In this document: piece after piece, positions 5,779-49,035 of the stretch
Numbering within the stretch: the stretch's first letter is position 1
How the letters are laid out: the number at the start of each line of letters is the position of its first letter
Virus record (IMG/VR): IMGVR_UViG_2872147552_000001
DNA: 64,000 nucleotides
Direction: 5' to 3' (one strand)
Source: a virus
Taxonomy: Duplodnaviria > Heunggongvirae > Uroviricota > Caudoviricetes
The notes under the pieces: model-generated
The model's input: the letters and a program-made list of their open reading frames with translations, nothing else
The model's database searches: none
What the model was told of the DNA's origin: nothing
Program-made: the position numbers and the translations under genes

Positions 5779-6174
5779 TTAAGCGAATACGCTTTCAGGG
5801 ATTAAGGTGTCGGCAGGAATGCCAGAGGTAATGCGCAGGCCGTACTGACCAATCCAGGCAGTGTTGGTATTCAGGTTGGAGGCGAATACGGTGTCAACCA
5901 TATTCATCATTGGTTCAAACACCTCTTCATCAACCTGGCGGAAGTAGTTCTCGATTTTCAGCAGCAGCGGGTCAGTTGCATCGAAAATAGACTGGTATTG
6001 AATCGCGTACTCGCCGCCGGAGGCATCACCTTTACGCACGATCGTACTGGCCTGGACTTCGGCACCAGTTTCGGTGTTGTACGTAACAACGGTGATTTTT
6101 GCCACATTCTTACCTTCGGCGGTTTCAGAGGCATAGTAAACATCAACTGTCAGTTTTTCGCGTTTAACGGTCAT
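5779..6174 (-). CDS. hypothetical protein
   Basis: Start set at MTVKREK ATG with GGAGAG RBS. Confidence 0.45.
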   Translation of the reverse strand: MTVKREKLTVDVYYASETAEGKNVAKITVVTYNTETGAEVQASTIVRKGDASGGEYAIQYQSIFDATDPLLLKIENYFRQVDEEVFEPMMNMVDTVFASNLNTNTAWIGQYGLRITSGIPADTLIPESVFA

Positions 6175-6216
6175 TTCACTCTCCGTAGTGTATTGGTTAT
6201 TTTTATATTCTATGAT

Positions 6217-6233
6217 CGTAAGTATGTACTTAC
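6217..6233 (-). promoter_or_regulatory. class B palindrome (TAAGTA..TACTTA type)
   Basis: cgtaagtatgtacttac about 45 nt upstream of the start. Confidence 0.4.
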
Positions 6234-6300
6234 AATACAAAAAAGCCCCGTAAGGATGGCGGGGCTGTCGTACTGTCGACTAATTACCACTTGCACATTA

Positions 6301-6612
6301 TCAGGCTATTGCCATCACTGATGCTCTCTGAATTTCTTGCTGGGCCACGCGGTTAACTTCCATCAAAGCCAGTTCGAGCTGATGTTCCGGCCACATTCTT
6401 TGAAATGCCATCCAGCCTTTTCCACGCTGGCGACGAACATTCATTACATAACGAGTAAAGGTGTTTTTATCGAAAGACACCGCTGTTTCACGGAACAGAC
6501 GAATAGAGGTTCCATTGGCAACGATGTCCAGCAAAGTTAATTGAGCAACCAGCGCAGGCTTCTCTTTTCTCTTCTGGTCTTTGTCCAGACCAAGAACCAA
6601 TGATTTTTTCAT
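6301..6612 (-). CDS. hypothetical protein (103 aa)
   Basis: Start at ATG with GGAG RBS (MKKSLVLG...). Confidence 0.45.
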   Translation of the reverse strand: MKKSLVLGLDKDQKRKEKPALVAQLTLLDIVANGTSIRLFRETAVSFDKNTFTRYVMNVRRQRGKGWMAFQRMWPEHQLELALMEVNRVAQQEIQRASVMAIA

Positions 6613-6623
6613 CACAACTCCGT

Positions 6624-6637
6624 AAACAACTTGTTTT
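6624..6637 (-). promoter_or_regulatory. class A palindromic leader motif
   Basis: aaacaacttgtttt 12 nt upstream of the start. Confidence 0.45.
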
Positions 6638-6737
6638 CTCAATGGCGTAAATAATACCAGTAAGAAAACGGCTACAAAGCATAATGATCAGGTGCATGAT
6701 CGATATGCAGGTTCTTCCCTGCGGCTACATATTAAGT

Positions 6738-6756
6738 TAAGCCAGCAATGCTGGCT
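6738..6756 (-). terminator. hairpin (variant of GGCCACC family)
   Basis: aagccagcaatgctggctt downstream of the gene ending at 6767. Confidence 0.35.
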
Positions 6757-6766
6757 TTGGTTGGGG

Positions 6767-7096
6767 TTACTCGAATACTTCAAGAAACTCCTGAACGTCC
6801 CAATGCTGGACGAGGTGAAGATAGACCTTAGAAATCACGTCATTTTCGCTATCGCATGTGAAGTAGTACTTCTGGCTGCGGTTGTATGTGTCCACACAAA
6901 ATTCGCTCATATCCATAAAGTCAGCATCTTCACCCATGTCGCAAATCATCAAAGCAGGTGCGTCATCACGAGTCATCAGCTCAAGCACCCACCGCGAATT
7001 GATCAGAGTGGAAGACCAACCTTCTAACTCATAAAACTGATCAAACTCTTTTTGAGTTAATTTCTTGATTTGGTTGATGTCGATATTTGCAAACAT
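6767..7096 (-). CDS. hypothetical protein (109 aa, acidic)
   Basis: Start at ATG with AAGGA RBS (MFANIDINQ...). Confidence 0.45.
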   Translation of the reverse strand: MFANIDINQIKKLTQKEFDQFYELEGWSSTLINSRWVLELMTRDDAPALMICDMGEDADFMDMSEFCVDTYNRSQKYYFTCDSENDVISKVYLHLVQHWDVQEFLEVFE

Positions 7097-7108
7097 AAAG
7101 CAATCCTT

Positions 7109-7122
7109 AAACAACTTGTTTT
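7109..7122 (-). promoter_or_regulatory. class A palindromic leader motif
   Basis: aaacaacttgtttt followed by GATAAT-like -10. Confidence 0.45.
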
Positions 7123-7457
7123 CTTGATGGTGTTATTATCGCAATAACGCACAGGCGAAAAAGGATTTTATTCCGGTGAATGTGGTTTTGGCAGTGAGTT
7201 TTCAGGTTCAGTACCGAGTACACTTTTTACATTATTCTGATTTAGTGGCCGAAGGTGGCTGGTGGGCAGAATAATCATCTCCCCGAAAACCTACTGAAAT
7301 CGATTGTGACCCGTTGGCTGTCTGGCACAATTACGCTGTAGCTGGGCATTCAGAGGGAGTCCAACGGTAAGTTAGTCCGCCTGCACGTGAGCGCCTCTCT
7401 TCTTCCCGCACATTACAGGTGGGTAGCCGCAACTCTCCCTCACGCTATACCGGTACG

Positions 7458-7595
7458 CCGCCGTTCCTGAACCGGCATCGAGCCTTTTCCCGAAATCCAC
7501 ACAGGCAACTCGACCGTTTCCCTGAAAACCTCCAGCCGTTCCCCGAAGGCAACCCAGCCGTTTCTGTAGCGGGATGCAGCTTTTTCCCTGTATGG
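7458..7595. repeat. second cluster of CCGTTTCC-type direct repeats
   Basis: cgccgttcctgaa, cgaccgtttccctgaaaa, cagccgtttccccgaa, cagccgtttctgta; same family as 3855-3970. Confidence 0.6.
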
Positions 7596-7599
7596 ACCG

Positions 7600-8640
7600 A
7601 AGGCTGACCGTAGGGGTGTTACGGGGGATAAAATCAGGAGTTGAATAAATACGAAAAAGGAGGCGACACCCCTCCTTCCCTCCCCACTTATACATACCTG
7701 GCTTCTTCGCTATACATGTTGTGTTTTATTCGTGTTTTATCTGTCTCAACCTCTCTATGGACGTTAACACTCACTCCTTCCAGAACGTTCTATACGGCGA
7801 CTAATTCTGTTGGTGAATTGGGTGTGTTGTTCTCTCTGTCGGTGTATGTGGTTTCGTTCGTTTTGCGGTGGTTCTTCTATGGGGTGTTCTCGTCGTTTTG
7901 GTGATTGTTCTTCTCCGTGTATGGAGTAATGGCAGGTGGGCGATTCCTTTCGTTGTTGTGTTTGAGTTGTTTGTCTGGAGTGTGAAAGGCTTTTGTAGTT
8001 ATTCGTGTATTGGGTAATGGCGTTTCCCGTGATTGTTCTGTTTCGTGTCTTTTGGGATTGAGAGAAGCCTTGCGGTTACAGGCTTCGTTGGGGGTTCAGT
8101 GATTCTGGTGTTTCTTCGCTGTTTGGGTAATGGCGTGTCGTGGGTATCGCGCGTATGAATGTTTTCGGATTGCCTGTGAAAGTTAGGTTGGTTGTCCGGT
8201 AGCCTGGGGAGAAGAGGTGGGTCTTTTCGGTAGCCTGCCATAAAGAGGTTGGTTGTTTTTGGAAATGGCATATGTGTTATTTAGTTGTTTTGTTATGCCT
8301 GAAAATAAGTTGTTTATATGGTTATGTAACGCAACGGGAACGATTTTGAGCGTGTGTTTTTGTTGGTAGTGTGTTGGGTCGTCTGTGGTGAAAATTGGAC
8401 GCTGTGGCGCTGTCTGCTGCGTAGAATTACGGGTATAAGCAGTGATGTGTGAAAACGTCAATTTTTTAGACCAAATAGGGTGAAAGCGTTGATGTTTCGT
8501 TGATCTGTTATTTAGTTGTTTTCTTGTTTGTATAAACAACTATAACCTATTGATATTTAAGGATGTGATTGCGGGTATGGAAGGGGAGTAGTGGCGATCA
8601 ACGGATTCTTATAGAAAAGAATCAAATTGTGACCGCCATT
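7600..8640. other. ORF-poor, GT-skewed noncoding region with degenerate repeats
   Basis: Plus strand strongly G+T rich; recurring gggtaatggcg and ggtagcctg units; only low-complexity ORFs. Confidence 0.5.
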
Positions 8641-9890: not shown

Positions 9891-11924
9891 TTACTTAACC
9901 TGGTGGCCAGGTTTAGCACCAGCATCCGGGCTTAACAGGAAGATATCTTTCCCGCCGGGGCCAGCAGCCATCACCATGCCTTCAGAGATACCGAAGCGCA
10001 TTTTACGTGGTGCCAGGTTAGCCACCATAATGGTGTGACGACCAATCAGTGCCTGTGGATCTGGATAAGCGGAACGGATGCCTGAGAAGACATTACGCTT
10101 TTCACCACCGAGATCCAGCGTCAGGCGAAGCAGTTTGTCAGAACCTTCTACAAACTCTGCGTTTTCAATCAGCGCCACGCGCAGGTCAACTTTGGCGAAG
10201 TCGTCAAAGGTGATAGTTTCCTGAATCGGGTCGTCAGCCAGTGGGCCAGTTACCGGTGCGGCTGTGGCTTTCACTTCTTCTTTGGATGCTTCCACCAGTG
10301 CTTCAACCTGCTTCATATCGATGCGGTTATACAGTGCCTTGAACGGATTTACTTTATGGCCCAGCAGCGGTTGCTGGATACCATCCCAGGTCAGTTCTGT
10401 ATTCAGGAATGCTTCTGCACGTTCAGTCAGTTTCGGCAGTACCGGCTTCAGGTACGTCATCAGCACGCGGAACAGGTTAATGCCCATAGAGCAAATCGCC
10501 TGCAGATCGGCATCGCGACCTTCCTGCTTCGCCACCACCCACGGAGCCTGTTCATCGACATAGCGGTTAGCCAGGTCAGCCAATGCCATGATTTCACGGA
10601 TAGCTTTACCAAATTCGCGGCTTTCCCATGCTTCGCCAATCACTTCAGCGGCATCAGTAAAGGTTTTGTACAGTTGCGGGTCAGCCAGTTCGCTTGCCAG
10701 CACGCCGTCAAAACGCTTGTTTATAAAGCCTGCATTACGGGAGGCCAGGTTAACCACTTTGTTCACGATATCGGCATTCACGCGCTGAACGAAATCCTCC
10801 AGGTTGAGATCGATATCATCAATGCGCGAAGAGAGTTTCGCAGTGTAGTAGTAACGCAGGCTGTCGGCGTCAAAATGATTCAGCCAGGTGCTGGCTTTAA
10901 TAAAGGTGCCGCGAGACTTGGACATCTTCGCGCCGTTCACCGTCACATAGCCGTGAACAAACAGGTTGGTCGGCTTGCGGAAGTTGCTGCCTTCCAGCAT
11001 GGCAGGCCAGAACAGGCTGTGGAAGTAAACAATATCTTTACCGATGAAGTGGTACAGCTCGGCGGTGGAGTCTTTCTTCCAGTATTCATCGAAGCTGGTG
11101 GTATCGCCGCGCTTGTCGCACAGATTCTTGAAGGAACCCATGTAGCCAATCGGCGCGTCCAGCCAGACGTAGAAATATTTGCCCGGCGCGTCCGGAATTT
11201 CAAAACCGAAGTAAGGCGCATCGCGGGAGATATCCCACTGTTGCAGGCCGGATTCAAACCATTCCTGCATTTTGTTCGCCACCTGCTCCTGCAACGCGCC
11301 GCTGCGGGTCCATGCCTGCAACATTTCGCTGAAAGAAGGCAGATCAAAGAAGAAGTGTTCGGAATCACGCATTACCGGGGTAGCGCCAGAAACCACCGAT
11401 TTCGGCTCGATCAATTCAGTCGGGCTATATGTTGCGCCGCAGACTTCACAGTTATCGCCGTATTGATCTGGCGCTTTACATTTCGGGCAGGTGCCTTTTA
11501 CAAAACGATCCGGCAGGAACATGCCTTTTTCCGGGTCGTACAACTGAGAGATAGTGCGGTTTTTAATAAAACCGTTCTCTTTCAGGCGAGTATAGATAAG
11601 CTCAGACAACTGACGGTTCTCTTCGCTGTGCGTCGAGTGATAGTTGTCATAGCTGATGTTAAAGCCTGCGAAATCAGTCTGGTGTTCCTGACTCATTTCG
11701 CCAATCATCTGCTCCGGTGTGATACCAAGCTGCTGCGCTTTCAGCATGATCGGCGTACCGTGGGCATCGTCGGCACAGATGAAATTAACCTCGTGGCCGC
11801 GCATTCGCTGGTAACGAACCCAGACATCAGCCTGGATGTGCTCCAGCATATGGCCGAGGTGGATTGAGCCGTTAGCGTACGGCAGCGCGCACGTCACCAG
11901 AATTTTCTTCGCGACTTGGGTCAT
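9891..11924 (-). CDS. metG: methionyl-tRNA synthetase
   Basis: 677 aa from [26 protein letters not shown] (HIGH motif) with KMSKS and C-terminal tRNA-binding domain; very close to enterobacterial MetG from memory. Confidence 0.9.
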
Positions 11925-12081
11925 AGTAGGCATTACTTCTTTGTAGTGAAAAGGGGCTTGATAGTAACAAAATGGCCTTATGTCTGCCATGTGATAACAG
12001 CATTTCTCATAAATGATTAAATGTCGTAGCTGGAGTACACTACAAGGCGACAATTGCGCAAATTAAAATAAAGGAGACGGG

Positions 12082-13182
12082 ATGAGCGAGTCCAAATCGC
12101 CGGATGCCCTGAGAGCAATGGTAGCCGGTACGCTGGCTAATTTTCAGCACCCAACCCTGAAACACAACCTGACTACGCTTAAAGCGTTACACCATGTTGC
12201 GTTGATGGATGACACACTGCATGTCGAACTAATCATGCCTTTCGTGTGGAATAAGCCTTTTGAAGACCTGAAAGAGCAATGTAGTGGTGATCTGCTCCGT
12301 ATCACTGGCGCAAAGGCTATTGACTGGAAGCTGTCGTACAACATTGCCACGCTTAAGCGCGTCAAAAACCAACCAGGCATTAATGGCGTTAAGAACATTA
12401 TCGCCGTCAGCTCAGGCAAGGGCGGCGTGGGTAAATCCTCCACGGCGGTAAACCTGGCACTGGCGTTGGCTGCTGAAGGTGCGAAAGTTGGTATTTTGGA
12501 TGCCGATATCTATGGTCCATCAATTCCAACCATGCTGGGTGCGGAAAACCAACGTCCAACCTCACCTGACGGTACTCACATGGCACCTATCATGTCTCAT
12601 GGCCTGGCAACCAACTCTATTGGTTATCTGGTCACCGACGACAATGCAATGGTGTGGCGTGGACCGATGGCCAGCAAGGCGCTGATGCAGATGTTGCAGG
12701 AAACTCTATGGCCTGATCTGGACTATCTCGTTCTCGATATGCCGCCGGGCACTGGTGATATTCAGTTGACGCTGGCGCAGAACATTCCTGTAACTGGTGC
12801 GGTTGTGGTAACTACGCCGCAAGACATCGCGCTGATCGATGCGAAGAAAGGCATTGTGATGTTCGAAAAAGTCGAAGTGCCGGTACTGGGTATCGTCGAA
12901 AACATGAGTGTGCATATTTGCAGTAACTGCGGTCATCACGAGCCAATTTTTGGCACCGGTGGCGCACAGAAACTGGCCGAGAAATACAACACGCAGTTGT
13001 TAGGCCAAATGCCACTTCATATCTCTCTTCGTGAAGATCTGGATAACGGAACACCAACCGTTATTAGTCGTCCAGATAGCGAATTTACGGCTATTTATCG
13101 TGACCTCGCAGATCGCGTTGCCGCCCAAATGTATTGGCAAGGTGAAGTAATACCTGGCGAAATCGCATTCCGCGCAGTGTGA
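12082..13182 (+). CDS. apbC: Fe-S cluster carrier ATPase ApbC/Mrp
   Basis: P-loop SSGKGGVGKS, CxxC (CSNCGHH); divergent from metG as in enterobacterial chromosomes. Confidence 0.9.
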   Translation: MSESKSPDALRAMVAGTLANFQHPTLKHNLTTLKALHHVALMDDTLHVELIMPFVWNKPFEDLKEQCSGDLLRITGAKAIDWKLSYNIATLKRVKNQPGINGVKNIIAVSSGKGGVGKSSTAVNLALALAAEGAKVGILDADIYGPSIPTMLGAENQRPTSPDGTHMAPIMSHGLATNSIGYLVTDDNAMVWRGPMASKALMQMLQETLWPDLDYLVLDMPPGTGDIQLTLAQNIPVTGAVVVTTPQDIALIDAKKGIVMFEKVEVPVLGIVENMSVHICSNCGHHEPIFGTGGAQKLAEKYNTQLLGQMPLHISLREDLDNGTPTVISRPDSEFTAIYRDLADRVAAQMYWQGEVIPGEIAFRAV

Positions 13183-23530: not shown

Positions 23531-23778
23531 ACAACCGCCTTAGTCACAACATGATCCTGAGTAACTGGATGAACTTGAGGTATCGCATCCACCGTCATCC
23601 CATCCAGAGTGACAGGACGCTCTACTGGAGTGGTGGTAATTGTCGTCGACGGAGGTGTGGTGATGGATGAACCCGGCATCAAAAGGCTCTGGCCGGCTGG
23701 AACGGCTATCGTCGCCAGTGAAACTATAATGAGAACGTAGGCCATTGGTTTCAGCCTCTTTCTTTGAAAATTTTCCAT
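23527..23778 (-). CDS. small secreted or membrane-anchored Thr/Pro-rich protein
   Basis: Hydrophobic MAYVLIIVSLATIAVPA then TTPPSTTITTTP; coupled to downstream gene. Confidence 0.35.
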   Translation of the reverse strand: MENFQRKRLKPMAYVLIIVSLATIAVPAGQSLLMPGSSITTPPSTTITTTPVERPVTLDGMTVDAIPQVHPVTQDHVVTKAVV

Positions 23779-24034
23779 TCGAACTGTCCTTGTTGTTTTT
23801 CTCCTTCACTAAAGGCCGTGCATTTTTCGCTTGGTGTGAAGAACCAGAGGTAACAATCGCCCCCACGTTCGCAACAACTGACGCTTGCTTATCTAAACGT
23901 TCATTCAGCAACCGAACGGTAGTCTCCAGTTCATCAAGACGTGACAGAACACGACCGCTAAATAATTCGGCCAAAATTTGACGTAGTGAACGAGGACGTT
24001 TAGTTGCAGAAGTGAAATAGGTTTGACGTGCCAT
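23540..24034 (-). CDS. hypothetical protein (N-terminal part plausible, C-terminal part overlaps 23527-23778 in another frame)
   Basis: N-terminal about 85 aa look protein-like; C-terminal part low-complexity Ser-rich. Confidence 0.3.
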   Translation of the reverse strand: MARQTYFTSATKRPRSLRQILAELFSGRVLSRLDELETTVRLLNERLDKQASVVANVGAIVTSGSSHQAKNARPLVKEKNNKDSSNGKFSKKEAETNGLRSHYSFTGDDSRSSRPEPFDAGFIHHHTSVDDNYHHSSRASCHSGWDDGGCDTSSSSSYSGSCCD

Positions 24035-24163
24035 GTGGACTCCATCCAGTGTCAGAAAGAGTTGCGGCTGGCGATTGCCAGCCGCCTTTCTCGTTCCATC
24101 CTGGAACTGTGTCTTACCGACACATTGTCATCCTGACGCTGATAAGATACATGATTTAAAATG

Positions 24164-24183
24164 ATAGGTAAACACTTACTTAC
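24164..24183 (-). promoter_or_regulatory. class B palindrome
   Basis: ataggtaaacacttacttac. Confidence 0.35.
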
Positions 24184-24773
24184 TGCTTGTTGTAAACAAA
24201 ACCAATATCTTTCTTGTGAGGCATATCTGCTGCGGAAAAAGCTGCGATCTTCGCGAGTCGATCACATATTTCATTTTCACGATGCCCGGCGTGACCTTTA
24301 ACCCACTTCCAGCGAACATTATGTCGACTTGCAGCCTCATCCAGACGCTTCCACAGATCAACATTCTTTACCGGTTTTTTGTCAGAAGTCACCCATCCAT
24401 TGCGTTTCCACCATTTCATCCACTGTGTCATGCCGTTTTTCAGATACTGGCTATCAGAGTACAAAATAACGTTGCATGGATATTTCAAACGCTCCAGCCC
24501 GATAAGTGCGCCCATCATCTCCATGCGGTTATTGGTGGTGCTATGAAAACCATCTGAGAACTCGCGTTCCTCACCACGATACTGGAGAACGATACCGTAA
24601 CCACCCGGGCCACCCGGATTTTTAAGGCAAGAGCCATCACTAAAGATTTTCACGGTTTTGAGCTGGGGATTGAACTCTACGACAGGCGTTGTGGGATTGG
24701 TGCGGGGAGAATTTTTGTTTTTGGCTTTTTTGCGAGTTTTTGCTTGCGATCGGGCTGGTGTCTTCGTCGTCAT
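24180..24773 (-). CDS. rnhA: ribonuclease HI
   Basis: IFSDGSC...[27 protein letters not shown] motifs; basic N-terminal extension; AGGAG RBS. Confidence 0.8.
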
Positions 24774-30099: not shown

Positions 30100-31203
30100 T
30101 CACACCGCCACTGGAACCTTGATCCACGGAAGAGTGCTGTAGCCGCACACCTGCACACCTTCCCATTTGAAGTCGTCCAGTTCGGCCCATTCATGCGGGA
30201 AGATGACAACCGGGTCGGACTCTTTGGGCGGCTCGCGCTTCATCAGTTCCTCAACGCCTTCCATGTGGTTGTTGTACAAATGCACGTCAAAGCCAAAATG
30301 CACGAATGCGCCAGCCATGTGGCCGGTGATCTTCGCGAGGAAGTGGGTGAGAATGCCGTAACCGGCGATGTTGAACGGCATACCAACAAAGGTATCGACA
30401 CTGCGTTGAACCAGGCATGAGTTCAGAATGCGTTTCGGGATGCCCAGCTCGTCCAGCATGTTCTCAGTAATGCCGCCATCTCTTTCCAGAAGACACAGCA
30501 TCTGGGTGTAAATGGACTCGTGGCCGTGGCGGTTGTGCTGTATACCAATGTCAGTTGCCATCGTTAAACGGGTTTCAAAATCCAGCTCACGACTCCACAA
30601 AGAGAAGACAAAGTGGCAAGGTGGCAGTTTCATATCCTCAAGCTCGCCTACGTTCCATGCGTTAAGCATGATGCGACGATCGGTAGGGTTCGTGCGCAGT
30701 GTATCGACAATACGCTGTAGCTGATCGATTTCACGGGACAGCACTACGCGATCTTCACTGATACCCAGGTATCCCTCGACTCTGTACCCGCGTTCACGGA
30801 AAGTAGCGATCTTGCTCAGATATTCACTATGGCTCACGATGCGGGTATCTTCCCATCGACGCCACTGCTTACCGTAAACCGGCCCCAAATCGCCATTCTC
30901 ATCGGCCCATGCATCCCAAATCTTAACGCCGTTATCCTTGAGAAATTGGATGTTGCCCGTGCCTTTCAGATACCACTCAAGTTCGACAAGCAGTGGCTTA
31001 AGATTTACCGCCTTTCCAGAAATAAGCGGCACAGTCCCACCAGTAAGCATGTAATAAGAGGGAACGTAGCAGGTGCTTAAAGTACCAGTGCCTGTGCGAT
31101 CATCAGCCTGCACGCCGCTTTTAAGCACCGTCTCAATAACTTTTGCATACGATGCGTTTGTTACCTGACCGTTCGTATGCTCTCGATTCAAAAGGAGTGA
31201 CAC
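30100..31203 (-). CDS. thyA: thymidylate synthase with about 50-aa internal insertion
   Basis: DRTGTGT, LPPCH, PFNIAGY, HLY, IKVPVAV motifs; GTG start with GAGG RBS; extra segment between PPCH and the SCxxxxRS region. Confidence 0.85.
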   Translation of the reverse strand: MSLLLNREHTNGQVTNASYAKVIETVLKSGVQADDRTGTGTLSTCYVPSYYMLTGGTVPLISGKAVNLKPLLVELEWYLKGTGNIQFLKDNGVKIWDAWADENGDLGPVYGKQWRRWEDTRIVSHSEYLSKIATFRERGYRVEGYLGISEDRVVLSREIDQLQRIVDTLRTNPTDRRIMLNAWNVGELEDMKLPPCHFVFSLWSRELDFETRLTMATDIGIQHNRHGHESIYTQMLCLLERDGGITENMLDELGIPKRILNSCLVQRSVDTFVGMPFNIAGYGILTHFLAKITGHMAGAFVHFGFDVHLYNNHMEGVEELMKREPPKESDPVVIFPHEWAELDDFKWEGVQVCGYSTLPWIKVPVAV

Positions 31204-46420: not shown

Positions 46421-48760
46421 TTACTCTTCTACTGACTCGGTGGGGTTGTCTTTTGCTCTTCGGTCGTCGATTGCCTGCAAAGCCGCAATGATTTCAGCCA
46501 GTGGCTTCTCCCGATACATCTCGACGATCTGCGATTTGGTGTATTTCTTGTCACCAATTTCAACTCGCCCGCTGGCGTTCTTTGGCAGGTATCCTTCTTC
46601 CAGCATGTACTCGACGAGCGATTCGATAACGTCGAGGCCACGAGTAGGATCGAAGTAGAATTTCCAGGTGCATTTGCCATACGGTGGTGCAACTTTGTTT
46701 TTGATGCATTCTGCGCCTACGTCCTGGCCGATCTTCTCTTTACCATCCTTCATCACCGATGCACCAAGACGGATACGTACAGAAGCGTAGAACTTCGGTG
46801 AATCTCCACCTGGCGACGTAGTAGGGTCGCCAAACATTACACCGATTTTTGTGCGAACCTGATTCAAGAAGATGATGCAGGCGTTGTATTTGCGTGCCCA
46901 CAAAGCCAGAGTAGGGAAGTTCGCACTCGTCGCACGAGCCAGTGCCGTATTGTCGTTCATGTTTAGCTGATCTTTGTCTTTGGCAGTGCCTTCAGCCATC
47001 TTTTCGAACTTCTCGGCTTTGGAGTTCGGAACCATAGACGCAAGAGAGTCAGCCACGATACAGATTGGTGCTGATTCGGGGATAAGCTCTTCATCACGAA
47101 CCAATTTAAGTATTGTGCCGATCAACTCTACAGAGTCTTCGAAGGTATCTGGCTGCTTGTATACCCACTGACCGTCATCCTCATCTGCGTTCAGGCCATT
47201 GGCGACAGCCAGGCCAACGTCAAAACTGTTTTCATGATCGAGGAATACCGCCAGACCATCCTGTTTTTGTGCTGACACCATCGCAGCCGTCGCGAGGAAT
47301 GTGTTGTGGCTGATAATCCCGTTAGACCAGAAAGAGTGTGTTTCCGGCATCGCTACGTCGAACGTTGGTGCTTCACCTTCCTCAATAGCCACGACTTCGT
47401 CGTAGAACAAGTTAGAGCCAATTACCGCTGCCAGTTGTGCAAACAGATGCTCGTTAAAACGATTCTTTCTGCCAATGAAGGAGACATAGATTTCTCGCAG
47501 TTTGTCTATTCCGACACGATCGCCGCGGCCAATAACGTGGTCTACCAGAGCGTAGTCTTCACGGGTGGTCTTGGTGAGCGACTCGTAGAGTGATTTCACT
47601 AAGCCGCTGATGTGCGGAACATAGCCTGAGTAAGTGCGGTCAAAACCAATGTCCCGTTTGGTTGCCACTGATAAACGTGCCGGAGATTCGAAACCAATCG
47701 TTGACAGAAAAAGGTCGTAATTAGAGCCACTGAATGACAGCCGGTAATATGTATTTTCATAACCCGCGACGTGTTTTTCAGAGATAGTTGACGTAATCCC
47801 CAGATTCAGGAGCATGAGGCGAATTTGCTGTAGCAGCAGCCCACTCGCGCTCACAACCTCAATGCAGCGACCATCATTGACGTGGCATTCCAGCTCAAAG
47901 TAGCCGCGAAGGAATGCAATTTGAGCCTCGCTATTGGCGCGACGCACACTCAACGGAACCTGCTTGCCAGCAGCTTTCTCATACTCCAGACCATATTCTT
48001 TAAAAAGCAGCGAACGCACCTCTTTGCTAAACAGCACATGGTCTTCCGAGCCGTTATGTTTTCTCGTAACTGGCATCTTGTCTGATACCAGCGAAATGAG
48101 GCGGTAGTACTCATCCTTGATGAATGGATCTGTGTTAGAAAAATGCACAGAATTTTCAGAGGCCACGTATCCGTCAGCAATTAAATAGCCCATCAGTTTT
48201 GCGATATTGGCATCCAGGTGCTGATCGCCGAATTGATGTGTGCCAACCATTGAAGGAATCGTGTCGCCTACACTGATTTTTTCAGCATACCGCCAGACGA
48301 TATTGCCTAAGTCGTCAACCACACGGATTGGGTGACGGAACGTAGCCTCGATGTAACCCCCTGATGCCAGCTTAATGCGCTTGAATTTGCGACGGTTGTT
48401 CCATGTCAGGTGTGAGGTCTTCTCTATCACGCCATTTTCATTGATGAGTCCAACGTTATGCTCTACATCGCGAGTAGTGCATGTCGCTTTGTACCCTTCA
48501 ATCTCAAACAACTCTTTCACTGTTACCATTCCACGCTCCGTCAGCAGCATGGTGTCTGCGGTAACACATTTCCCCGCACTTGGTGGCCCGAATACTTCTA
48601 CGATACGACCACATGGGAAACCGCCATCGTAACGACCGGAAATAGCTTTGTTTAACGGAGGAAAGCCTGTGTCAATCCAATGAGTTACTTTCTGAATTTC
48701 GTCGTTGCTACCGATTTTCTTTTTCAGAGCAAGTGCCAGTGCGGATTTTCCTTTTGCCAT
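46421..48760 (-). CDS. RecA-family recombinase interrupted by an intein
   Basis: Exteins GRIVEVFGPPSAGK|TF, QPDT.E, IIFLNQVRTKIGVMFGDP, KFYASVRIRL match RecA motifs; 422-aa insert after the Walker A lysine. Confidence 0.7.
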   Translation of the reverse strand: MAKGKSALALALKKKIGSNDEIQKVTHWIDTGFPPLNKAISGRYDGGFPCGRIVEVFGPPSAGKCVTADTMLLTERGMVTVKELFEIEGYKATCTTRDVEHNVGLINENGVIEKTSHLTWNNRRKFKRIKLASGGYIEATFRHPIRVVDDLGNIVWRYAEKISVGDTIPSMVGTHQFGDQHLDANIAKLMGYLIADGYVASENSVHFSNTDPFIKDEYYRLISLVSDKMPVTRKHNGSEDHVLFSKEVRSLLFKEYGLEYEKAAGKQVPLSVRRANSEAQIAFLRGYFELECHVNDGRCIEVVSASGLLLQQIRLMLLNLGITSTISEKHVAGYENTYYRLSFSGSNYDLFLSTIGFESPARLSVATKRDIGFDRTYSGYVPHISGLVKSLYESLTKTTREDYALVDHVIGRGDRVGIDKLREIYVSFIGRKNRFNEHLFAQLAAVIGSNLFYDEVVAIEEGEAPTFDVAMPETHSFWSNGIISHNTFLATAAMVSAQKQDGLAVFLDHENSFDVGLAVANGLNADEDDGQWVYKQPDTFEDSVELIGTILKLVRDEELIPESAPICIVADSLASMVPNSKAEKFEKMAEGTAKDKDQLNMNDNTALARATSANFPTLALWARKYNACIIFLNQVRTKIGVMFGDPTTSPGGDSPKFYASVRIRLGASVMKDGKEKIGQDVGAECIKNKVAPPYGKCTWKFYFDPTRGLDVIESLVEYMLEEGYLPKNASGRVEIGDKKYTKSQIVEMYREKPLAEIIAALQAIDDRRAKDNPTESVEE
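47303..48568 (-). mobile_element. intein with LAGLIDADG homing-endonuclease domain
   Basis: Insert begins Cys (CVTADTMLL) and ends HN before Thr; LMGYLIADGYV and LRGYFELECHVND motifs. Confidence 0.6.
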
Positions 48761-48762
48761 GA

Positions 48763-49035
48763 TCAGGCTCCTTTTGTTTCGTTGATTCGTTTTAAAGCGG
48801 CGGATTCATCGAATACAATCGCATCGTGGTTAAGGAGTCTGGATACACGAGCGAGGATTTTTACGACCTGCTCGCTGACTAATCCAAACTCGCGATCTGT
48901 CGCTTTCATTCCGGCAGCGCCTAGAATTGACGGCAGTGCGATGACAGCGTACTCACCGTGATAAAAGACAATCTCTTTTGCCAGTTGGGCAGGGGTGGTT
49001 GTAGCGCCATTGATAATCGATTTAAGCATTAGCAA
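48763..49035 (-). CDS. hypothetical protein (90 aa)
   Basis: Starts 3 nt after the recombinase stop. Confidence 0.45.
   Translation of the reverse strand: MLMLKSIINGATTTPAQLAKEIVFYHGEYAVIALPSILGAAGMKATDREFGLVSEQVVKILARVSRLLNHDAIVFDESAALKRINETKGA

Follow-up and report, generated by a model that had tools for sequence, protein, structure and literature searches.

A canonical class-1 intein with a LAGLIDADG homing endonuclease very probably occupies the RecA-c2 site (K72/T73; here and below, a slash marks an insertion point) of a RecA-family recombinase encoded by an SSU5-like phage-plasmid, with splicing and homing as its predicted activities. The gene is encoded on the minus strand of the 64,000-nt stretch of DNA analysed here (the window). 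The analysis established the anatomy of the element, its exact boundaries and its fold, together with population signatures of recent horizontal spread.

The recombinase gene and its intein

The open reading frame that contains the intein (Table 1) translates into a 779-aa precursor of 86.6 kDa. A Shine-Dalgarno sequence, AAGGAG, precedes its ATG (48760) by 7 nt. A homologue search with the intein only gave partial proteins; an exact-sequence look-up gave the 779-aa cluster representative WP_134809646.1, which is the exact precursor protein and belongs to a cluster of 1496 members. The insertion point lies between the Lys and Thr of Walker A (GPPSAGK/C...SHN/TF), with Cys at aa 65, His-Asn at aa 485-486 and Thr at aa 487. 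The earlier note on this DNA had described a 422-aa insert at 47303-48568 that splits Walker A, starts with Cys and ends with His-Asn before Thr. This description was exact to the base, the minus strand being left unstated, and the split indeed falls between the invariant Lys and Thr.

Table 1. Coordinates in the window of the recombinase gene, its intein and related features
Feature	Position	Strand	Basis
Complete precursor gene, RecA-family recombinase with intein inside	46421..48760	-	ORF and domain matches
N-extein (aa 1-64), up to and including the first half of Walker A	48569..48760	-	alignment with E. coli RecA as far as K72
GPPSAGK, first half of Walker A, aa 58-64	48589..48569	-	translation
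Intein, 422 aa, 47.6 kDa, precursor residues 65-486	47303..48568	-	HINT splicing domain split by LAGLIDADG domain
Intein block A (CVTADTMLLTERG), Cys1 as predicted first nucleophile	48530..48568	-	alignment, translation
Intein block B (GGYIEATFRHPIRV), T76-x-x-H79	48320..48361	-	T76 and H79 invariant in 9-sequence alignment A1
LAGLIDADG motif 1 (LMGYLIADGYV), intein aa 125-135; D132 at catalytic position 8, then Gly	48164..48196	-	alignment
LAGLIDADG motif 2 (FLRGYFELECHV), intein aa 219-230; E227 at catalytic position	47879..47914	-	residue-level alignments
Intein blocks F and G (PTFDVAMPETHSFWSNG IISHN), with D404, H411, penultimate H421 and terminal N422	47303..47368	-	alignment, intein_Cterm match
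C-extein, aa 487-779 and stop codon, beginning with Thr+1	46421..47302	-	alignment to E. coli RecA
Walker B (ICIVADS) in C-extein	47065..47027	-	sequence
L2 region in C-extein	46870..46805	-	sequence
Apparent co-conversion tract: intein with 103 nt upstream and 42 nt downstream extein	47261..48671	-	comparison with intein-free allele L005
Intein-free junction in CP053388.1, GGTCCTCCAAGTGCAGGGAAA/ACGTTCCTTGCAACAGCA			insertion site at slash

As for the exteins, the precursor matches Pfam RecA with E = 2.7e-36, the match being split by the insert. Removal of nt 193-1458 leaves a gene of 1074 nt. The natural intein-free allele in CP053388.1 is just as long, and the two are 97.5% identical. In the comparison with intein-free homologues that the earlier note had proposed, the alignment at the predicted boundaries was exact. 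The predicted spliced product aligns with E. coli RecA without gaps across GPESSGK/T (K72/T73), in line with the RecA-like character ascribed earlier to the flanks. The extein has a conserved Walker A, Walker B and L2 loop. The extein matches PHROG 97 ('UvsX-like') with E = 1e-83 and solved RecA proteins with E of about 1e-34, against 1e-5 for T4 UvsX. The score for TIGR02012, the housekeeping RecA equivalog, is 132.9 bits and thus below the cut-off of 325.3, as measured on the intein-containing precursor. These matches mark the extein as a phage-type RecA-family paralogue, the precursor falling short of the TIGR02012 equivalog.

The product name given by PGAP in most RefSeq records, 'LAGLIDADG family homing endonuclease', would suit a free-standing endonuclease gene or a fusion protein with no intein. 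Such a reading is next to impossible and was already refuted by the anatomy: a single continuous frame has RecA sequence on both sides, HINT blocks A, B, F and G lie on either side of the endonuclease domain, the modelled fold is the one known from bifunctional inteins, and the boundaries match the intein-free alleles to the codon. Moreover, some records of the 779-aa precursor carry the name 'intein-containing recombinase RecA'.

The insert bears the complete set of splicing residues, i.e. Cys1, T76xxH79, D404, H411, H421, N422 and Thr+1, and C1, T76 and H79 are invariant across the 9-sequence intein alignment A1. It also scores above the cut-offs of Pfam Intein_splicing (43.9 bits in the precursor, cut-off 35.8), NCBIfam intein_Nterm (35.5 bits, cut-off 24.5, covering aa 65-147) and NCBIfam intein_Cterm (17.8 bits, cut-off 15.6). 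An AF2 model of the intein (pLDDT 88, pTM 0.88) found its best PDB match by Foldseek in TliVMA (7qss, E = 1e-25, TM 0.73); the matches over both intein domains were TliVMA, PI-PfuI, PI-PkoII and PI-SceI, while the splicing domain alone matched the mini-inteins 4oz6 and 1am2. From its blocks and modelled fold, the insert is classified as a class-1 intein of the HINT superfamily, with splicing itself predicted. Thr+1 of the C-extein would then act as splicing nucleophile and also be the Walker A Thr.

The intein could alternatively be a non-splicing relic that inactivates the recombinase gene and makes it, in effect, a plasmid-borne pseudogene. In the literature searched, no report showed that this intein splices or cuts DNA, and one distant relative (L088) has an in-frame stop within block F. 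We regard a relic as very improbable, for residues for all four splicing steps are present, the 2340-nt ORF is uninterrupted in every copy examined, the intein shows purifying selection (see below), and about a third of the homologous plasmids have kept it at full length.

The endonuclease domain matches Pfam LAGLIDADG_3 (E = 1.1e-17, aa 279-356 of the precursor) and resembles I-DmoI and I-Tsp061I in fold (Foldseek, AF2 model). Two LAGLIDADG-like motifs had been noticed earlier, and they correspond to LMGYLIADGYV and FLRGYFELECHV. In TliVMA and PI-PkoII, the residue that aligns with D132 of LMGYLIADG, and likewise with E227 of LRGYFELEC, is the catalytic Asp, and the KxVP motif of block D is conserved. 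Position 9 of motif 2, directly after E227, is Cys where the canonical residue is Gly, and at position 8 of the second motif two relatives, P0004 and P0007, carry Gly in place of an acidic residue; E227 is thus assigned by alignment as the putative second catalytic residue. Taken together, the alignments and the model point to a predicted double-motif, intein-borne LAGLIDADG homing endonuclease, acidic at the catalytic position of both motifs. With blocks A, B, F and G and both motifs intact and a fold matching TliVMA, PI-PfuI, PI-PkoII and PI-SceI, the earlier assignment as a LAGLIDADG intein holds.

We infer how this intein would splice, that it would cut DNA, and where it would cut. Translation would yield the 86.6-kDa precursor, which should be inactive as an ATPase because its P-loop is interrupted. 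Cys1 would begin an N-S acyl shift, Thr+1 would attack to give a branched intermediate, and Asn422 would cyclise with the assistance of His421. Ligation of the exteins would then produce a 357-aa recombinase (39.0 kDa) with an intact GPPSAGKT P-loop and free the 47.6-kDa intein. When two related phage-plasmids share a cell, the endonuclease domain of the freed intein may cut intein-free alleles of the same gene, and repair off the intein-bearing copy would install the intein with short flanking tracts (homing).

Host replicon and distribution

The recA region is 98-98.6% identical to that of the phages Cyrano and PhiR41_1, and the extein is about 86% identical to that of SSU5. The gene order UvsY-like / gp32-like SSB / exonuclease / RecA is also the same, and phage Cyrano carries terminase, capsid and tail genes alongside RepA and ParA. 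In PLSDB, the records that match are plasmids of circular form, about 100-115 kb in size. By synteny and identity, the replicon is assigned to the SSU5-like phage-plasmids, in agreement with the phage-plasmid origin first attributed to the recombinase.

PLSDB has about 740 homologues, and the intein is present in 247 of its plasmids, with full length in 239 of them. Among 5426 complete E. coli genomes, the gene was found at 121 places, all of them (121/121) on plasmids and none on the chromosome. Two partial intein matches in plasmids (H69 and H107) were considered as mini-intein derivatives and rejected; they are IS-truncated remnants. Intein relatives that are 27-45% identical sit at the same K/T site in other RecAs, and in the distant same-site relatives P0011, P0016 and P0017 the endonuclease domain is lost.

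A scan of large window genes, including those for the RNR large subunit, MetG and ThyA, revealed no further inteins or endonuclease domains. For DnaE of the window, length was compared instead, and it equals that of the intein-free DnaE homologue in Cyrano.

Population signatures of intein spread

All 18 intein copies examined are exactly 1266 nt long and contain no stop codon. Their pairwise identity is at least 96.5%, whereas the host genes in the same pairs go down to 83.3%. Likewise, dS is 0.064 in the intein versus about 1.14 in the extein of the same pairs, i.e. some 18-fold lower in the intein. The dN/dS of the intein ranges from 0.07 to 0.19, an estimate that only 10-30 substitutions per pair stand behind, and on these ratios the intein is under purifying selection. 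Intein-bearing and intein-free alleles occur together in 4 host-gene clusters (divergence of at most 3%), which are spread across two deep lineages.

When the window allele was compared with its nearest intein-free allele (L005), all 18 nucleotide differences fell within -103 to +42 nt of the insertion site, and they delimit the apparent co-conversion tract of Table 1. G-7, G-4 and A+3 are present in 18/18 intein-bearing alleles versus 7%, 38% and 5%, respectively, of 61 intein-free alleles, and the ±9-nt junction haplotype of the intein-bearing alleles is found in none of those 61. These patterns indicate that the intein has spread recently and horizontally, probably by homing, and it seems to be spreading still. 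The dS contrast, the presence/absence polymorphism and the flanking tracts around the insertion site give indirect support to the predicted site-specific cutting of intein-free alleles. Base composition was dropped as a sign of a foreign intein, the GC content being 0.484 in the intein versus 0.493 in the exteins.

The low intein divergence and the localised tract could in principle also stem from homologous recombination of the ordinary kind between phage-plasmids in one cell, without a cut by the endonuclease. The intein would in that case splice but carry a dead endonuclease, and would pass on only by vertical inheritance or by such recombination between related phage-plasmids. Three observations speak for this: the second LAGLIDADG motif ends with Cys instead of Gly; the loss of the domain in P0011, P0016 and P0017, although these are more distant, means that decay does happen in this intein family; and SSU5-like elements are mosaic and recombine anyway. 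We nevertheless consider a dead endonuclease unlikely. The domain is intact, with dN/dS below 0.2, in 18/18 copies, and is retained in the 239 plasmids with a full-length intein; the dS of the intein lies about 18-fold below that of the surrounding gene; and the insertion site is exactly where the exchange tract has its centre, a centring that, repeated in several lineages, is not expected from general recombination.

The homing intein may be a natural 'gene drive' working now among clinically common enterobacterial phage-plasmids, a reading that is better supported than its co-option, on top of selfish spread, as a post-translational switch. In the latter case, splicing would depend on a condition such as ssDNA, redox state, DNA damage or lytic induction, and the activity of the recombinase would be gated by it, so that the phage-plasmid recombinase would be active only once the element leaves the plasmid state. 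A precedent exists in the RadA intein, inserted at the same site, a role as stress 'panic buttons' has been put forward for P-loop inteins (PMC4760082), and a precursor with a split P-loop could not bind ATP normally. Yet the sequence data hold nothing in favour of a switch, the presence/absence polymorphism within nearly identical host lineages argues that the intein is dispensable, and the authors of PMC4513877 report that the E. coli RecA precursor could not feasibly take up the extein-intein geometry modelled for Pho RadA. We regard a switch as unlikely. If the homing intein is indeed a gene drive, its co-conversion tracts would record past co-residence of different phage-plasmids.

Significance and comparison with known inteins

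In RefSeq, the 779-aa precursor is named mostly 'LAGLIDADG family homing endonuclease'. This label hides a recombinase of a widespread enterobacterial phage-plasmid family, and it also obscures that the 'first E. coli intein' resides in a gene of phage-plasmids rather than in the chromosomal recA. Work on intein homing and P-loop splicing has so far dealt mostly with archaeal or mycobacterial inteins. Intein-bearing and intein-free alleles in near-identical backgrounds, with clear co-conversion tracts, make this intein a convenient mesophilic E. coli system for both processes. Its practical value is modest, and it brings nothing new in principle.

The novelty implied in the earlier note did not stand. 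Table 1 of Topilina, Novikova, Stanger, Banavali and Belfort (2015, NAR 43:6631; PMC4513877) lists a RecA insertion point c2 (65-486) in E. coli, Enterobacter and Salmonella, and the P-loop K/T position is described as a 'classic' intein insertion (PMC5050341). Within what that table gives, the c2 intein and the one in the window share host genera, protein family, P-loop insertion point and the residue range 65-486, and, as c2 is defined, the window intein (aa 65-486) separates the Walker A Lys from the Thr in a RecA of bacterial type. The two are almost certainly the same intein, as compared by residue range, site and host rather than by UniProt sequences (e.g. M8ZI95). They differ in that the available text of PMC4513877 speaks of 'E. 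coli RecA' with no plasmid or phage origin, whereas the gene is found here on SSU5-like phage-plasmids. Judged by that table, the window intein is not new but a textbook kind of element, catalogued in 2015. A search for literature specific to an intein in SSU5 or phage-plasmids, or to an SSU5 homing endonuclease, found nothing of that kind; what came up for inteins in phage-plasmids were unrelated citations on toxin-intein antimicrobials.

The RadA intein of Pyrococcus horikoshii (c1; PDB 4E2T/2LQM) has the identical insertion point, where the P-loop of a RecA-superfamily recombinase ends, and it too has a Thr+1 nucleophile. Unlike the window intein, it is a mini-intein of about 170 aa with no endonuclease, its host is an archaeal hyperthermophile, and experiments have demonstrated that it splices conditionally. 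Its sequence similarity to the window intein is marginal (E = 0.1), and it was judged to be an independent invasion. The M. tuberculosis PI-MtuI (site a) and the M. leprae RecA intein (site b) are likewise LAGLIDADG inteins in bacterial RecA, but they are chromosomal and actinobacterial and are inserted at residues 252 and 206, respectively, versus 65 in the window. NCBIfam NF007072, 'intein-containing recombinase RecA', matches the extein parts with a score of 97.9, which is so far below the cut-off of 1024 that the window protein is not of that family.

The two-domain HINT and LAGLIDADG architecture is common to TliVMA (7QSS), PI-PkoII (2CW7), PI-PfuI (1DQ3) and the yeast PI-SceI (1VDE). The window intein matches the archaeal inteins with TM values of 0.60-0.73 and, in the sequence of the endonuclease domain, with E around 1e-7. 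However, these four inteins are only 10-22% identical to it, come from other organisms and reside in V-ATPase A, DNA polymerase or ribonucleotide reductase. The terminase intein family phrog_17415 (PHROG) has weak similarity to the window intein (E = 1e-8), and the TerL1-a P-loop inteins of mycobacteriophages (Kelley et al. 2016, PMC5050341) differ from it in having a terminase as host protein and in belonging to actinobacteriophages.

The recA-like gene and its insert

The recA-like gene is read as a single open frame that runs through the insert (Table). In its translation, GPPSAGK (aa 58-64) is followed by Cys65, and the 422-aa insert ends with His485-Asn486 before Thr487. This is the layout that the earlier note had read from the sequence, and its coordinates agree to the base. 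When nt 193-1458 were removed in silico (junction ...GGGAAA/AC...), 1074 nt were left, the same length as the natural intein-free allele of Escherichia phage CMS-2020a (CP053388.1), to which the remaining gene is 97.5% identical; the proposed comparison with intein-free homologues thus bore the reading out.

The predicted spliced product (357 aa) aligned without gaps to E. coli RecA across GPESSGK/TT, and the insertion site therefore lies between K72 and T73 of that protein, splitting the Walker A motif as had been claimed. Conservation of Walker B and the L2 loop (FLNQVRTKIGVMFGDPTTSPGG) in this alignment, together with a Pfam RecA match of the precursor in two stretches (E = 2.7e-36), also upholds the description of the exteins as RecA-like. 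PHROG 97 'UvsX-like' was matched with E = 1e-83, while TIGR02012 scored 132.9 against a cut-off of 325.3 with the intein-containing precursor as query. Judged by its sequence, the extein is a member of the RecA family and not the housekeeping orthologue.

Table. Features of the window and of compared loci
Feature	Coordinates	Strand	Details
RecA-family precursor ORF	46421..48760	-	779 aa, one uninterrupted frame spanning the insert
Intein	48568..47303	-	422 aa
Ribosome-binding site	7 nt upstream of ATG	-	AAGGAG
Small ORF	48763-49035	-	90 aa, between exonuclease gene and recA; stop at 48763-48765
metG, methionyl-tRNA synthetase	9891-12053	-	720 aa, full length
ApbC/Mrp Fe-S carrier	12082-13182	+	
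ORF antisense to metG	10356-11867	+	503 aa
Thymidylate synthase homologue	30100-31203	-	367 aa
tRNA cluster	62943-63596	-	Ser-TGA, Thr-TGT, Tyr-GTA, Asn-GTT
L088, relative at the K/T site	6001-8388 (ENA ERZ27257820 contig k141_7541)		44%-identical intein
L089, 3'-truncated intein piece	86333-86715 (NZ_CP162200.1)		with downstream recA
L090, 3'-truncated intein piece	23737-24320 (NZ_CP075717.1)		with downstream recA

The insert carries the signatures of both splicing and endonuclease domains. Pfam Intein_splicing matched aa 73-486 (43.9 bits, cut-off 35.8), LAGLIDADG_3 matched aa 279-356 (E = 1.1e-17), and both NCBIfam intein splicing-region models, N-terminal and C-terminal, exceeded their cut-offs; the next-strongest NCBIfam matches were models of intein-containing archaeal RFC, IF-2, GyrA, DnaB and V-ATPase. 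In an alignment of nine homologous sequences, blocks A (Cys1), B (T76-x-x-H79, invariant), F (PTFDVAMPETHSF, with D404 and H411) and G (SHN, then Thr+1) are all present, as is block D (KQVP). The two LAGLIDADG-like motifs noticed earlier were recovered as LMGYLIADG and LRGYFELEC, whose D132 and E227 align by phmmer with the catalytic acidic residues of the solved TliVMA and PI-PkoII inteins. The AlphaFold2 model of the insert (mean pLDDT 88, pTM 0.88) has endonuclease-containing inteins as its top PDB matches, namely TliVMA (7qss, E = 1e-25, TM 0.73), PI-PfuI, PI-PkoII, the PhoVMA intein and PI-SceI. Its splicing domain alone was matched by mini-inteins and its endonuclease domain alone by I-DmoI. 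An intein with a homing endonuclease is thus very probably the explanation of the insert.

Probable mobility of the intein among alleles

Alleles from IMG/VR (61 usable intein-free and 17 intein-bearing) were compared with the window allele. All 18 inteins are exactly 1266 nt long and free of stop codons. They are at least 96.5% identical in pairs whose host genes are as low as 83.3%, and between the window and allele L074 dS is 0.064 in the intein versus 1.14 in the extein. Intein dN/dS is 0.07-0.19. When host genes were clustered on their distal parts at 3% divergence, four clusters each mixed intein-bearing and intein-free alleles; these belong to two lineages separated by about 15%, with only 2.9% difference between their inteins.

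The nearest intein-free allele, L005, has 18 differences from the window allele, all at -103 to +42 nt of the insertion site, and is identical outside this tract. The 42-nt tract downstream of the window's insertion site has a haplotype that belongs to the other of the two deep lineages. All intein-bearing alleles have G-7, G-4 and A+3, bases at synonymous third positions that only 7%, 38% and 5% of intein-free alleles share, and their ±9-nt junction haplotype was found in no intein-free allele. Such footprints are expected where an endonuclease initiates gene conversion and the co-conversion tracts are short, and are not by themselves proof of cleavage. They suggest that the intein is mobile now or was so recently.

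Phage-plasmid home and distribution

The window gene is 98-98.6% identical to those of Escherichia phages PhiR41_1 and Cyrano, and the type phage-plasmid SSU5 has an intein-free homologue of 1077 nt. Cyrano encodes terminase, capsid and tail proteins together with RepA and ParA; the earlier phage-plasmid call is therefore correct. The gene closes a module ordered UvsY-like mediator, gp32-like SSB, 5'-3' exonuclease, small ORF and RecA. The small ORF ends with a stop codon 2 nt before the recA ATG (48760); a Pfam scan of this ORF gave no match, and its counterparts are hypothetical SSU5_059 in SSU5 and unannotated in Cyrano.

The whole gene has matches in 737 PLSDB plasmids, of which 247 carry the intein (239 full length, identity 90-99.6%). 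Intein and whole-gene matches number 123 and 229 in Escherichia, 71 and 269 in Klebsiella, 41 and 91 in Enterobacter, 6 and 23 in Citrobacter, 2 and 9 in Cronobacter, and 1 and 42 in Salmonella; Yersinia has 63 whole-gene matches yet is absent from the genera with the intein. Of 5426 complete E. coli genomes, 120 have the intein, in 121 places that are all on plasmids, with no chromosomal copy. The identical precursor, WP_134809646.1 from Shigella sonnei, belongs to a cluster with 1496 members at 90% identity. In database records H11-H66 and H83-H105, the name given by RefSeq/PGAP to the whole precursor is mostly 'LAGLIDADG family homing endonuclease' and in one case 'hint domain-containing protein'; 'intein-containing recombinase RecA' is limited to some Enterobacter plasmids. 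This inconsistent annotation, wrong in most records, conceals the recombinase.

L089 and L090 adjoin IS3/IS30/IS110 elements in unrelated large plasmids, one of them IncF. They were considered as mini-intein derivatives and rejected, being truncated 3' parts beside IS elements, that is, captured phage-plasmid fragments.

Elsewhere in the window, the adjacent metG and ApbC/Mrp genes form a chromosomal-type housekeeping pair on a phage-plasmid; at least 56 plasmids of PLSDB, one of them from E. coli O104:H4, have this arrangement too. The ORF antisense to metG has no Pfam match and is probably a spurious shadow ORF. The thymidylate synthase homologue exceeds solved bacterial ThyA by about 100 aa; insertions at about aa 119-156 and 204-261 break up its Pfam and PDB matches, and no signature of an intein or endonuclease is present in either. 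The annotation of Cyrano, a close relative, has only Asn, Thr and Ser tRNAs against the four in the window's cluster.

Relation to known inteins

Inteins 27-45% identical occupy the same K/T site of other RecA proteins, including those on a phage-like 102-kb contig and a 550-kb contig, the latter copy without recognisable LAGLIDADG motifs. The L088 intein lies in a syntenic DnaE/gp32/exonuclease/RecA module. In it an in-frame TGA replaces the block F Trp of all relatives (HSF-stop-SNGFISHN/T), and the gene is therefore called as two ORFs; the TGA may reflect decay of this copy by nonsense mutation, or else an error of sequencing or a recoded TGA. In one RuvB, a mini-intein occupies the equivalent site. 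Thus, as far as sequence comparison indicates, the site known as c2 hosts a broader allelic intein family whose members have reached different points in the homing cycle.

The K/T position is the 'classic' P-loop insertion site (PMC5050341). The literature searched contained no report of splicing or endonuclease activity of this RecA intein, or of its phage-plasmid location. Topilina et al. 2015 defined five insertion points in RadA/RecA inteins (PMC4513877); the part of that survey covered here has no mention of a plasmid or prophage origin for the c2 intein. Added here are its correct home, SSU5-like phage-plasmids and never the chromosome, sequence-level evidence of ongoing homing, and the observation that the precursor is misnamed in most database records. 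The intein-in-recombinase interpretation was right, but the element was already catalogued: Table 1 of the survey lists 'c2 (65-486)' in eight E. coli strains, two Enterobacter and one Salmonella, the very residue range of the window intein, which belongs to a thoroughly known class and occupies the best-known hotspot of insertion.
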